Below, in pieces: positions 2,802 to 13,424 of a stretch of DNA of 16,497 nt. The notes under the pieces were generated by a model. The model was not told where the DNA came from and ran no database searches. It worked only from the letters and a program-made list of their open reading frames with translations. The position numbers and the translations under genes were made by a program. The stretch comes from a virus. Position 1 is the first letter of the stretch. The number at the start of each line of letters is the position of its first letter. The DNA is taken from the UHGV virus genome UHGV-0097332; one strand, given 5' to 3'.

Positions 2802-3523
2802 TAAGCAGCCTCCCCTGTTACTTTCAGCATTCCGTTATCTAGCAGCTTTCTGGTCAGCCACTGTTGACCACGCCCGGTGATTTTTGTGGTGAACGATATC
2901 TGTATTCCGTGATTTGTGTTGACCGCTGTTTCTTTCACTGTGAAATAGCCGCGATCCATATATTCCTGCATTGGCACATTGCGCCGGGAACCTGAAGCAA
3001 TAAGGATTTTGTGATCGCGCATCCACGCAAACAGTTTGTTTGGACCAATTCCAACAACCTTTGCAAAGTTTCCAATCAAAATTCCGCTGGCCTCGCCAAC
3101 GCGATCGGCAAACTCAACTTTAGGTGCGGCAATTGCGAGCTGGTTTTCCAGTTGCATTTTCTGCTCAGCAAGGTCAGCAGCAAGGCGCAACGCTTCTGGT
3201 AGCGTTTTTGGGATATTAACCGCAGTTTCTTCAAGCTCTCGCCAACGGTCAACAAGACGAGCGGTGAATTCCGGCGACAACTGGGCAACGACAATAATGC
3301 TGTCGCGCTTGCCTTGTTCGCCTTCGAAGACGTAAGCCTCGACACTACGGCGCAGTCCTAAGTTATTGATTTTTTCGAAAACCTGCAATGCAGGAAGTTG
3401 AATAACTCCAGATTTAGCCAGGCGCTCTATTGATATTTTTACGTTATCTGGACGACTTCCCACCAACTCAGCGATTTCAATGCTTGTCATTTTGATGGCA
3501 TTGCCATTTATTAACTCATTCAT
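2801..3523 (-). CDS. Phage regulatory/antirepressor-like protein (Rha/Roi-type N-terminus, KilAC/ANT-type C-terminus)
   Basis: 240-aa ORF. The N-terminal part carries a helix-turn-helix-like segment (TSIEIAELVGSRPDNVKISIERLAKSG); the C-terminal part resembles KilA-C/ANT domains. Assigned from recalled family resemblance only. Confidence 0.55.
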   Translation of the reverse strand: MNELINGNAIKMTSIEIAELVGSRPDNVKISIERLAKSGVIQLPALQVFEKINNLGLRRSVEAYVFEGEQGKRDSIIVVAQLSPEFTARLVDRWRELEETAVNIPKTLPEALRLAADLAEQKMQLENQLAIAAPKVEFADRVGEASGILIGNFAKVVGIGPNKLFAWMRDHKILIASGSRRNVPMQEYMDRGYFTVKETAVNTNHGIQISFTTKITGRGQQWLTRKLLDNGMLKVTGEAA

Positions 3524-8712: not shown

Positions 8713-9429
<717 letters not shown>

Positions 9430-9436
9430 CACGTAA

Positions 9437-9874
9437 ATGATTAAAGAACGTATTTCTTATATCATTCCGATTGCGATGGATGAAGGCAACCCAGTAACTC
9501 CGGTTCTTATCTATGAAATGGATAAAGACTCCCATGAAGTGGATCTATCATTTGGCGCTTTTTTTATCGGCCTTAAGGCTACAAAAAAATATTCCATAGG
9601 CATTGAGGTTTTCAATGCTCAAGAAATACCGATACCAATTGACACAAAACTGTACTCCAACCATAAGTTTTTTACGGTAGCAGAAGCCAACGATGGAGAA
9701 ACCATCGTATCAACTTCTATGAGAATTAACTTCCCAAGGGTGAAAATTATCAAGCCTGGGATATTCGAAGTTAGAGCATCACTGGTTAATCCTGATAAAG
9801 GCGAAGTAATTGATGTAAAAAGTTCGTTTTTTGACGTGAAGATAACAGGATCAGTTCGCGATGAGTTTAGATAA
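9437..9874 (+). CDS. Hypothetical 145-aa protein in the rexA position (first gene of the candidate lysogen-expressed cassette)
   Basis: ORF starts 8 nt after the cI stop and is AT-rich. No transmembrane segment or recognisable motif. It is not RexA (lambda RexA is about 279 aa and unrelated in sequence, as recalled). Confidence 0.7.
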   Translation: MIKERISYIIPIAMDEGNPVTPVLIYEMDKDSHEVDLSFGAFFIGLKATKKYSIGIEVFNAQEIPIPIDTKLYSNHKFFTVAEANDGETIVSTSMRINFPRVKIIKPGIFEVRASLVNPDKGEVIDVKSSFFDVKITGSVRDEFR

Positions 9875-10232
9875 CAAGGTTGCTCAGCTTCGTCCAAATC
9901 AAAACATATCTCGCCCAATTGGACACTATTCCACTGATGATGCATACTCACGGCATGGTGGAGGAAACGGCGGAGGTAACATGCTTGAGGCTAGAGTTGC
10001 AAAGCTAGAGTCTGATGTTGAATACATCAAGCGCGATCTCGCTGAAGTAAAGTCAGATATAAAATCTGTAGATTCTCGTCTGTCAGGTATTGAGACAAGC
10101 ATTAGCTCAGCAAAAATCACCATCAAGGCATCTGCGGTCGTTGTCAGTTTCGTGTTCGCATTTTGCGCCTACATTTTTGGAAGTTATGTTTCCAAAATCC
10201 TTGATGCCTTAAACGGACTCGTTCTTAAGTAA
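9861..10232 (+). CDS. Hypothetical small coiled-coil protein with C-terminal transmembrane helix, in the rexB position (alternative start ATG 9981 gives 83 aa)
   Basis: 123-aa ORF overlapping the upstream ORF by 14 nt. Gly-rich segment, then coiled-coil heptads (LEARVAKLESDVEYIKRDLAEVKSDIKSVDSRL), then hydrophobic helix AVVVSFVFAFCAYIFGSYV. GGAGG motifs lie just upstream of the internal ATG at 9981. Followed directly by a terminator. Confidence 0.7.
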   Translation: MSLDNKVAQLRPNQNISRPIGHYSTDDAYSRHGGGNGGGNMLEARVAKLESDVEYIKRDLAEVKSDIKSVDSRLSGIETSISSAKITIKASAVVVSFVFAFCAYIFGSYVSKILDALNGLVLK

Positions 10233-10733: not shown

Positions 10734-11117
10734 ATGACACGCAGAACTCAGTTCAAAGGCAATTCACGTTCTCGTCGTCGTGAGCGTTTAAAGGCAAAGG
10801 CATTAGCTAACGGCGTACTGGCCCGCGAAGAAGCAATAAGTTCAGAAGTATTACACCGCCCTACTCTAAGCAGAGCGCAGATTCAGGCTAAAGGTACTCA
10901 CGAAACGCCTGATCGCATAGAAGACGCTAAGCCAATTAAGTTCATGGCACAGGACGTGATCTGGCAACAGAAAGAATACAGACGCAATCTGGAGCGAGCG
11001 GCCATTGTGTACGCGAATGAGTTTGGACATAAGCAACCAGAAACTGGTGTATGTCTTCCAAATGTAGCTCTTTACGCGGCAGGCTACCGGAAATCAAAAC
11101 AACTGACAGCGAGGTAA
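10734..11117 (+). CDS. N: N-like transcription antiterminator (arginine-rich motif; not lambda N)
   Basis: 127-aa ORF with an AGGAGG ribosome-binding site. N-terminal arginine-rich motif GNSRSRRRERLKAKA. First gene after pL/nutL. The boxB loop matches the P22 type as recalled. Confidence 0.78.
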   Translation: MTRRTQFKGNSRSRRRERLKAKALANGVLAREEAISSEVLHRPTLSRAQIQAKGTHETPDRIEDAKPIKFMAQDVIWQQKEYRRNLERAAIVYANEFGHKQPETGVCLPNVALYAAGYRKSKQLTAR

Positions 11118-11119
11118 TT

Positions 11120-11482
11120 ATGGGTCAGGAAGAAAAATATGAGCTTAAAAAGCTCATTGGAGAAGACGCCATAGAAGAAATTGCAGCATTAACAACAGCT
11201 ATAAAGAATATTAGGTATGCGCTAAATACGCTTATCTCCTCATGCGACAAAAATAGCAGGGAATTTTTGATACTTGGCGCAGCTCTAGGAATAGTTGATG
11301 CGGCAACGCTTCACCTAATTACTCATGACGATATTCTTATTGAGCCGTATGAAACATTACTGCTTGTCAGGCAAAAAATGGCTGATGCCGCAGCAAATGG
11401 AGACCTTCAACTTTACATCGACTTAAGGAAAGTATTAAGGCGAATGGTCAGAACTGAAGGAGATATCCCCCTGACAAAGTAA
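11120..11482 (+). CDS. Hypothetical early-left protein (120 aa)
   Basis: ATG 2 nt after the N stop (TAATTATGG). Acidic, helical-looking product; no family recognised. The ORF-track extension 11051-11119 overlaps N and is discounted. Confidence 0.55.
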   Translation: MGQEEKYELKKLIGEDAIEEIAALTTAIKNIRYALNTLISSCDKNSREFLILGAALGIVDAATLHLITHDDILIEPYETLLLVRQKMADAAANGDLQLYIDLRKVLRRMVRTEGDIPLTK

Positions 11483-11512
11483 GGGGGTGAAGAGGCTATT
11501 TCAGGAATAAAA

Positions 11513-12007
11513 TTAATAATTTGTCAGCGGCGGAACATATACAGGCTTAGGGGCTGGCGCTCTATACATCCGGTATTCATTCTTACAGCGAGGACATGAA
11601 TGCACAAAGAATCCATTAGATTTTATAGTAACCGTGCTTGGTTGAAGTATCGATATTTTATGTTCGCCGAAGCAATGTGCACAAAGGTTATGCTGCTGAA
11701 TAGAAGGATCGGAATGACTCTTAGGTCGATACACGACAGAACCACCTTCAGTTGTATGAAGTTCATAATTCTCAGCTTGCACAACAAACATCTTGATTTT
11801 TCTATTTTCATCTCGAAGCTTCATTGCGATCTCCTTCTCGGCCTGATAAAGGCCAGAGAGCTCCGCATTAAGCATCTGTAAGTCAGTTATTCTTTGGTGT
11901 AGATCACCAATAGCTTTAGCGATAACCGCATCGTCTCTGGTTTCTTTTATTGTCTTCAGCAGATCATAAGCCTGTTTCGCGGCAGTTATACCAGATAACA
12001 CATCCAT
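11513..12007 (-). CDS. Hypothetical coiled-coil protein with C-terminal zinc-ribbon (CxxC...CxxC), antisense to the pL operon
   Basis: 164-aa ORF on the opposite strand to all flanking early-left genes. AGAGAG ribosome-binding site upstream of the ATG. C-terminal motif CAHCFGEHK...SCPRCKNEY. AT-rich. Confidence 0.6.
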   Translation of the reverse strand: MDVLSGITAAKQAYDLLKTIKETRDDAVIAKAIGDLHQRITDLQMLNAELSGLYQAEKEIAMKLRDENRKIKMFVVQAENYELHTTEGGSVVYRPKSHSDPSIQQHNLCAHCFGEHKISILQPSTVTIKSNGFFVHSCPRCKNEYRMYRAPAPKPVYVPPLTNY

Positions 12008-12303
12008 ATAAATTACTCTCTTACTGTAGGGGTGAATAGAGTTTATCCGATTTCTCGCTGTAGGGGTACTCGAGAACCACCGAGCCTGATGTGGTTAAAA
12101 GACAGGCATACGAATAAACACTGCACTGTGTATTCATTCCAACGAGTGAATACACGGAGCAATGTCGCTCGTAACTAAACAGGAGCCGACTTGTTCTGAT
12201 TATTGGAAATCTTCTTTGCACTCCAATGTGAGGGCCTTTTTATATGCATACCAATAACGCTTCACTCGAGGCGTTTTCGTTATGTATAAATAAGGAGCAC
12301 ACC

Positions 12304-12444
12304 ATGCAATATGCCATTGCAGGGTGGCCTGTTGCTGGCTGCCCTTCCGAATCTTTACTTGAACGAATCACCCGCAAATTACGTGACGGATGGAAACGAC
12401 TCATCGACGTACTTAATCAGCCAGGAGTTCCCAAAAATGGATAA
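12304..12444 (+). CDS. cIII: CIII (FtsH/HflB inhibitor), 46 aa, ending at TAA relative to the 54-aa lambda protein
   Basis: AAGGAG ribosome-binding site 7 nt upstream. MQYAIAGWPVAGCPSESLLERITRKLRDGWKRLIDVLNQPGVPKNG matches lambda CIII residues 1-46 as recalled. The stop is TAA where lambda has a Ser codon; the out-of-frame downstream codons would still read NTYGYPD. Confidence 0.85.
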   Translation: MQYAIAGWPVAGCPSESLLERITRKLRDGWKRLIDVLNQPGVPKNG

Positions 12445-12550
12445 AACACTTATGGCTATCCAGACTAAATTCACTATCGCCACTTTTATTGGCGATGAAA
12501 AGATGTTTCGTGAAGCCGTAGAAGCCTACAGAAAATGGAGGTCAAAATGA
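12437..12550 (+). CDS. kil: Kil-like small protein (37 aa; lambda Kil is an FtsZ inhibitor)
   Basis: ATG overlaps the cIII 3' end. MDKTLMAIQTKFTIATFIGDEKMFREAVEAYRKW... resembles the N-terminus of lambda Kil as recalled; the C-terminus differs and is shorter. Confidence 0.6.
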   Translation: MDKTLMAIQTKFTIATFIGDEKMFREAVEAYRKWRSK

Positions 12551-12743: not shown

Positions 12744-13424
12744 ATGGGAACTGCGACATTAATACTCGGTGAATCTGGCACCGGAAAGTCAACCAGCATG
12801 AGAAATATCAATCCAGAGGAAGCAATACTTATAAAACCAATAGGCAAGCCGCTACCATTTAAATCAAAAGACTGGCTTGCATGGGATGCCAGAGCAAAAA
12901 AAGGAACCGTAGTTACCACTGACAAATGGCACGTAATAGTTGCTGTAATTAAGCGTGCTCACGAATACGGAAAAAGAATCGTTATTGTTGATGACTTCCA
13001 GTATGTGATGAGCAATGAGTTTATGCGCCGCTCAGAAGAAAAATCGTTTGATAAATTTACTGAGATAGGCCGCCACGCATGGGAGGTGATTAAGGCTGCA
13101 CAGGATGCACCTGATGACCTGAGAGTCTATTTTCTTGCACATACCGAAGAAACCCCTATGGGGCGCGTGAAAATGAAAACTATCGGCAAAATGCTGGACG
13201 AGAAAATCACTGTCGAAGGCATGTTTACTATAGTTCTTCGCACTCTTACCCACGATGACCAGTTCTTTTTCACCACGAAAAACAACGGTGCAGACACTGT
13301 TAAATCCCCAATGGGAATGTTTGATTCCAATGAGATTGATAACGATCTCTCTTTCGTCGATGCCACTGTTTGTGATTACTACGGCATCAATAATGTTCAT
13401 CAAATTAAGGAAAACGCCGCATGA
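12744..13424 (+). CDS. P-loop ATPase, RecA-like core (putative Sak4/AAA_24-type recombination protein)
   Basis: 226-aa ORF. Walker A GESGTGKST at residues 9-17 and Walker B IVIVDDFQ. Size and position (where lambda has its Red genes) suggest a Sak4-like protein; the family assignment is from memory. Confidence 0.65.
   Translation: MGTATLILGESGTGKSTSMRNINPEEAILIKPIGKPLPFKSKDWLAWDARAKKGTVVTTDKWHVIVAVIKRAHEYGKRIVIVDDFQYVMSNEFMRRSEEKSFDKFTEIGRHAWEVIKAAQDAPDDLRVYFLAHTEETPMGRVKMKTIGKMLDEKITVEGMFTIVLRTLTHDDQFFFTTKNNGADTVKSPMGMFDSNEIDNDLSFVDATVCDYYGINNVHQIKENAA

Follow-up and report, generated by a model that had tools for sequence, protein, structure and literature searches.

The antisense gene hkaP in the early region of a lambdoid phage: a probable Rip1-family defence protein behind a sieB-type promoter

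The window considered in this work, i.e. the whole stretch of 16,497 nucleotides from the virus genome UHGV-0097332, corresponds to the early region of a lambdoid (pro)phage, in which the + strand represents lambda-leftward transcription. The genes for an endolysin, Q, nin-type proteins, a DnaB-like helicase, O, cII, and cro are located on the minus strand between positions 86 and 8615. These are followed on the + strand by a lambda-type cI (8716–9429), two small genes (9437–9874 and 9861–10232), the antiterminator N (10734–11117), hkaQ (11120–11482), which encodes a 120 aa protein belonging to phrog_7374, and further downstream by cIII/kil (12244–12550) and a Sak4-like gene (12744–13424), with the genes for SSB and Abc2 likewise on the + strand. 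Between hkaQ and cIII/kil lies hkaP, an ATG-started open reading frame (ORF) of 164 codons on the minus strand (11513–12007), with which the adjacent hkaQ, on the pL transcript, is convergent; the annotation of hkaP as a rip1-like coding sequence is based upon the ORF and its translation, a match to phrog_1244 and homology to Rip1. An earlier reading of this DNA, made from the sequence only, had described an antisense ORF for a 164 aa protein with its own ribosome-binding site (RBS), flanked by early-left genes that are all on the + strand. Both parts of this description were borne out, as a Shine-Dalgarno sequence (AAGAGAG) is present at 12016–12022, 8 nt before the ATG, and the flanking genes from cI through the Sak4-like gene, including N, hkaQ and cIII/kil, are all on the + strand.

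The DNA surrounding hkaP is a mosaic. A junction is present inside N at approximately position 11052, where the first 105 residues of the encoded protein are not HK620-like and the last 22 are HK620-like. From this point up to position 12108, the block comprising the 3′ end of N, hkaQ, hkaP and the promoter region shows 97.8% DNA identity to the phages HK620 and Stx1a_10051. The sieB-promoter piece at the end of this block is joined at 12108–12112 to a lambda segment that is normally found between ral and ea10, and this same segment is joined at 12245–12246 to cIII/kil. The genes ral and ea10 themselves were missing from the window in blastn comparisons with the lambda-like phage ev017, which also served to delimit the spacer common to lambda-like phages (12112–12245). 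A tL2A-like hairpin followed by a T-run is present on the + strand at about 12218–12245, where HK620 annotates tL2A and tL2B, and the equivalent of tL2B was located at 12256–12275 by a terminator scan. By coordinate transfer, the predicted pL terminator tL1 of HK620 maps to 11894–11917 (+ strand), inside hkaP, and its architecture consists of TTGGTG-loop-CACCAA followed by a T-rich tail. As tL1 is situated within the strand antisense to hkaP, transcription from pL would need N-dependent read-through in order to cross this gene.

The two small genes following cI also deserve mention. Together they are positioned as rexA/rexB are in lambda. The first of these encodes a 145 aa protein belonging to phrog_5893, and the second encodes a 123 aa protein of phrog_6136 that combines a coiled coil with a hydrophobic segment at its C-terminus and gives weak XhlA/holin-like matches. 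PADLOC and NCBIfam scans gave no match for either product, and these genes may form a second module for exclusion or defence that is expressed from the prophage.

Full-length homologues of the hkaP product were found in many Enterobacterales with 48–99% identity, and more widely with identities down to about 26%. An exhaustive profile search recovered 2152 cluster representatives at E ≤ 1e-3 and 265 at E ≤ 1e-10. In the annotated frame, the dN/dS ratio was 0.11 in comparison to an allele from Salmonella (79% identity) and 0.19 in comparison to an allele from Pantoea (65% identity), and this frame had the lowest dN/dS of all six frames. Hence, hkaP is a genuine gene that is under purifying selection. 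The notion that it is no gene at all, but an ORF that arose by chance on the antisense strand of the pL transcription unit, could be entertained because a window of 16.5 kb holds many spurious ORFs and because HK620 annotates the terminator tL1 inside this one. However, the low dN/dS values are seen in this very frame, the full-length homologues retain invariant motifs over the entire range of identities from 26% to 99%, and the structure of one homologue has been solved; the conservation data refute this notion, and its probability is negligible. The gene had also been described as AT-rich, which holds only marginally, since its GC content of 41.6% is below the 46.2% of the window but close to the values for the neighbouring hkaQ (40.2%) and cIII-kil (43.6%). 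No terminator was recognized 3′ of the hkaP stop codon, where a hairpin at 11467–11487 is no more stable than shuffled controls (z = −0.95).

On account of its orientation, hkaP had been claimed to need a promoter of its own, and the upstream DNA agrees with this claim. Positions 12013–12108 of the window are 93.8% identical to positions 29652–29743 of P22 (NC_002371.2), which carry the annotations 'sieB: promoter' and 'sieB RNA start site', and the same upstream region is 97.6% identical to the DNA preceding sieB in phage ev017. Based upon the homology to P22, a sieB-type promoter is predicted on the minus strand at 12040–12070, with a −10 element TAAACT at 12040–12045. Alignment with the annotated P22 start site places the predicted RNA start at the A at 12033 (minus strand), which leaves a predicted 5′ UTR of 26 nt (12008–12033, minus strand) that includes the Shine-Dalgarno sequence. 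A scan with a generic sigma-70 consensus called no minus-strand promoter upstream of hkaP, as would be expected for a promoter of weak consensus, and the assignment is thus made by homology to P22 sieB only.

The homology to the sieB loci ends at position 12024, which is 17 nt before the ATG and short of the RBS, indicating that the sieB promoter is here followed by another RBS and ORF in place of sieB. The approximately 230 bp upstream of hkaP, up to the ATG, are 93–97% identical to the DNA upstream of rip1 in phage HK446, and the 5′ UTR and RBS preceding HK446 rip1 and HK620 hkaP show few or no differences from those of the window. Within the −10 region (12040–12050) two variants were observed, viz. 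GGATAAACT in the window, P22 and ev017, and TAGTAAAAT in HK620 and HK446. The second of these variants is nearer to the consensus than the first, and in view of this difference the level of expression may vary between carriers.

In P22 and ev017, sieB is located directly after gene 24 and N, respectively, and is antisense to pL. The suggestion that hkaP lies in the region where lambda carries ral and sieB was accordingly confirmed, with sieB of lambda and P22 occupying the same slot in the same antisense orientation. An antisense gene represents the normal lambdoid arrangement at this site and is no anomaly. The rip1 gene of HK446 (HK446_037) is found in the identical slot, directly after N and again antisense. 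Judging from these alignments, the slot is a cassette that extends from the 3′ end of N, its left boundary, where homology resumes at 11052, to the sieB promoter, and within it alternative cargoes are exchanged. [quoted passage not shown] Antisense placement in four slots is typical of self-promoted morons. The sequence-only reading, which took this gene for a moron for exclusion, was right in spirit, as the gene is oppositely oriented and its family has a phage-defence function.

In a number of metagenomic lambdoid contigs, the slot after N contains a 94 aa antisense gene with a weak Pfam match to GhoS (positions 3430–3714 in L014, 1713–1997 in L015, and 3430–3714 in L016), which lies beside a homologue of hkaQ. 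This gene, which is uncharacterised, is a further cargo of the after-N slot.

In the earlier reading the encoded protein was not recognized. However, it is identifiable, being 98.8% identical to HkaP (HK620p16) of phage HK620 and homologous to Rip1 of HK446, for which a structure has been solved. The HK620 record labels HkaP as a 'putative superinfection exclusion protein', and this label was given without sequence similarity to any known exclusion protein. A literature search on 'hkaP' returned unrelated acronyms only, and no experiment on HkaP was found in it. Of 5426 complete E. coli genomes, 66 carry the gene together with its promoter, and O26:H11 strains are numerous among them. Among phages, a match to the family was found in only 59 of 50,697 records, which means that most lambdoid phages are without a gene of this family.

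The relationship of HkaP to Rip1 is indicated by several kinds of comparison. Full-length matches to phrog_1244 were obtained for the window protein (E = 1.8e-50), HK446 Rip1 (2.2e-53), JBD30 gp30 (2.7e-61), and LPB1 ORF25 (2e-51). Profile and structure-prediction searches, which had been suggested as a means of checking the earlier interpretation, both converge on Rip1 in PDB entry 9OOX, which contains Rip1 of Escherichia phage HK446 in complex with the small terminase of Enterobacteria phage T6. When a profile of 21 homologues was compared with the PDB sequences, it matched 9oox_L, 'ring interacting pore 1 (Rip1)', with an E-value of 6.8e-18 over positions 17–149. Similarly, a Foldseek search of the PDB with the AlphaFold model retrieved 9oox_L (E = 8e-6) and 9oox_M (E = 1e-5), both with a probability of 1.00 (TM of 0.56/0.69 and rmsd of 3.5 Å over 123 columns for 9oox_M), and no other significant match. 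Direct comparison of HkaP with HK446 Rip1 by BLASTP gave 28% identity (E = 4e-14), and comparison with JBD30 gp30 by hhalign gave a probability of 98.6%. Scans of HkaP against Pfam and NCBIfam yielded nothing above threshold, and PADLOC-DB v2 (2023) yielded only a spurious match to Cas10 (E = 0.0032), Rip1 having been described after this library was built. Based upon these results, we consider it likely, with good confidence, that the product of hkaP is a divergent prophage defence protein of the Rip1 family, carried as cargo of the lambdoid sieB slot.

One homologue, from the Escherichia phage PhiR29_1 (positions 3279–4007 of L008), is annotated as a protein of 242 aa, of which only residues 77–227 match the family profile. 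It has either a mis-called start codon or an N-terminal extension.

In the AF2 model of HkaP (pLDDT 81.6), helices comprising residues 3–22 and 26–80 are followed by a beta domain (residues 81–149), with the N-terminal helices modelled at a pLDDT of about 87–90. The motifs C109xxC112 and C138xxC141 are invariant across 21 close homologues, and a larger set of positions (viz. Y81, Y93-R94-x-K96, the first CxxC, L121-Q122, and the second CxxC) is common to HkaP, HK446 Rip1, JBD30 gp30 and LPB1 ORF25. The C-terminal domain with its four Cys residues is a putative zinc site. Neither a transmembrane segment nor a signal peptide was predicted in HkaP. The Eisenberg hydrophobic moment of its N-terminal helices is only moderate (muH of 0.25–0.5), and similar values were seen for HK446 Rip1 and JBD30 gp30, so that this measure speaks neither for nor against pore formation. 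The protein had been described as a coiled coil combined with a zinc-ribbon. The long helices and the Cys4 domain are indeed present in the model, but in this family the helices are described as pore-forming in the membrane and not as a structural coiled coil (PMC13434031).

The mode of action of Rip1 was reported by Patel et al. (2026, Nature 651:1060–1067), and summaries of it are available in PMC13434031, PMC12908700 and bioRxiv 10.64898/2026.04.30.721860. [quoted passage not shown] By the same account, cryo-EM reveals 12 Rip1 monomers around an 11-mer ring of the small terminase, where Rip1 touches the ring with its C-terminal half and builds a pore from its amphipathic N-terminal helices; liposomes leak dye in the presence of the complex, and infected cells show a loss of membrane integrity (PMC13434031). 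The 12:11 assembly is documented solely for HK446 Rip1 with the T6 small terminase. Additionally, JBD30 gp30 is given as a resistance-conferring moron in PMC11445458, which cites Tsao et al. (2018).

From the homology to Rip1, we infer the following course of events for the hkaP allele, which concerns its expression in the lysogen, its trigger, the formation of a pore, and the resulting defence phenotype. In a lysogen, rightward transcription of hkaP, antisense to pL, would start at a sieB-type promoter that would not be subject to repression by cI, and the HkaP protein would build up harmlessly. Once an infecting phage reached late gene expression, its small terminase or portal ring would be bound by the Cys4 domains of many HkaP monomers. 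The ring could then serve as a template upon which the N-terminal amphipathic helices are gathered to form a pore across the inner membrane, and the cell would be permeabilised or lysed before progeny were complete, i.e. an abortive infection. During lytic growth of the carrier itself, pL transcription proceeding across hkaP to cIII/kil would lower the expression of this gene. Due to the limited identity of HkaP to HK446 Rip1 (about 28%) and to the Pseudomonas members (about 27%), its trigger, and even its activity, could differ from those described for these proteins.

Other functions may be considered for this protein. Its location in the sieB slot and the label in the HK620 record would be in accordance with classical superinfection exclusion, where injection of the genome is blocked and there is no cell death. 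However, SieB itself aborts infection and does not stop entry, the label in HK620 rests on no similarity to a known exclusion protein, and HkaP is without a predicted transmembrane segment or signal peptide. In the literature, JBD30 gp30 is given as a protein that 'blocks phage genome injection (Tsao et al. 2018)' in PMC11445458, whereas the account in PMC13434031 describes for this family a late block that is triggered by the small terminase or portal and involves membrane disruption. A block of entry is hence quite improbable. The zinc-ribbon had also been proposed to bind DNA or RNA, and a nucleic-acid-binding regulator, in which a dimeric coiled coil with a zinc ribbon controls phage or host genes, could be imagined from the common occurrence of nucleic acid binding among Cys4 zinc ribbons and from a weak, sub-threshold Pfam match to Zn_ribbon_SprT (E = 0.04). 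Nucleic acid binding by this domain found no support in our results: the matches in Pfam and NCBIfam are all below threshold, the sole significant match by sequence or structure is to Rip1 bound to a protein ring, and it is on this ring of phage small terminase that the summary in PMC13434031 places the C-terminal half of the family. We regard a regulatory role of this kind as extremely unlikely.

It is also conceivable that a Rip1-like protein serves the carrier phage, for instance by setting the time of lysis or by controlling packaging via the terminase or portal ring of this phage. Family members adjoin packaging genes (in the terminase gap) or lysis genes (in the Q-holin gap), and a pore triggered by a late protein could in principle function as an auxiliary holin. 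Against this, the gene is always antisense to its lytic operon, and with such constant placement lytic transcription would oppose the expression of hkaP. Further, the gene is dispensable and exchangeable with sieB and other cargo at this site, and the small number of phage records with a match to the family (see above) indicates that most lambdoid phages do without it. We therefore view a role in the carrier's own life cycle as very unlikely.

The neighbouring gene hkaQ is of very limited distribution. Within the phage collection it is found only with hkaP alleles of at least 98% identity, as part of one mosaic block, and it is absent beside the alleles with 79%, 65%, and 48% identity as well as beside HK446 rip1. 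The only divergent homologue of hkaQ (64% identity) lies beside the unrelated 94 aa antisense gene noted above, and a search for its relatives in 5.8 billion proteins gave 5 matches, just one of them below 90% identity. The possibility that hkaQ is a dedicated partner or antidote of hkaP, comparable to anti-Tab, was considered and found to be unsupported, since hkaQ is not kept beside other alleles. In some database entries hkaQ is extended upstream to 148 aa and named 'antitermination N domain protein', which is probably a start-codon or naming artefact resulting from overlap with the 3′ end of N.

The identification of HkaP as a probable Rip1-family defence protein provides a mechanistic label for a gene that has so far been 'hypothetical' in HK620-type and Stx1a prophages, and suggests that different defence genes can take each other's place under the control of the lambdoid sieB promoter. 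It is also of practical relevance for phage therapy and for the ecology of Stx phages, as prophages carrying this gene may abort infection by particular phages. The remaining interest lies in the allele specificity of the system and in how the carrier phage avoids killing itself. A more far-reaching proposal, that the ring trigger of HkaP differs from the T6-type small terminase, that hkaQ is an antidote for the lytic phase, and that the interval between N and the sieB promoter is a hotspot for defence cassettes, is in our judgement rather unlikely to hold. If true, the antidote would shield the carrier phage's own assembly after induction, similar to Esc with SieB and anti-Tab with Tab, and the contents of the hotspot would be sieB, two very different rip1 alleles and the 94 aa GhoS-like gene.

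The system described here is already of a known type, and no new kind of system is revealed by it. The hkaP genes of HK620, HK629, HK630 and the Stx1a-converting phage Stx1a_10051 are in effect the same gene as that in the window, with 98.8–99.4% identity at the protein level. The hkaQ-hkaP block of about 1 kb is likewise alike in the window and the HK620-type carriers (97.8% at the DNA level), but the window phage differs from these in having lambda-type cI immunity and another 5′ part of N (the first 105 residues). SieB, of about 192 aa, is located in the membrane and has an internal antidote, Esc; SieB itself is expressed from the prophage and aborts infection by heterologous phage instead of blocking entry. 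The sieB gene of lambda and P22 resembles hkaP in its slot, its antisense orientation, and its homologous promoter and RNA start. However, the two proteins show no sequence similarity, HkaP matching phrog_1244 only; in contrast to SieB, HkaP is soluble by prediction, and no internal antidote frame, as Esc in sieB, was seen in hkaP.

Another comparison is provided by Tab of the Pseudomonas phage JBD26, an 83 aa protein whose minus-strand gene has a promoter of its own. Tab provides a constitutive prophage defence, blocks tail assembly via the tape-measure protein and has a dedicated antidote gene, anti-Tab (PMC10884400). Tab was rejected as the identity of hkaP, being an unrelated protein, and in contrast to Tab with its antidote gene, no conserved partner was found for HkaP. 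[quoted passage not shown] These homologues, viz. JBD30 gp30, D3112 orf25 and LPB1 ORF25 from Pseudomonas Casadabanvirus, belong to the same PHROG as HkaP and show 27–29% identity to it over the full length. They are also antisense morons with their own promoter region for which a phage-resistance function is reported, and the escape mutations reported for Pseudomonas phages in PMC13434031 are in the portal and not in the small terminase.

Lastly, a comparison may be made with Rip1 of HK446, which like HkaP has 164 aa and shares with it the PHROG, the fold, the motifs and the genomic slot. The amino-acid identity of the two proteins is only 28%, and HkaP is without the 11-residue N-terminal extension of HK446 Rip1. 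The window contains hkaQ as an extra gene between N and hkaP, which is absent beside HK446 rip1, and its −10 region is of the P22/lambda variant (GGATAAACT), whereas HK446 and HK620 have the other (TAGTAAAAT). With their near-identical promoter and RBS and such low protein identity, these two Rip1 alleles represent a natural pair for mapping the recognition of the ring.
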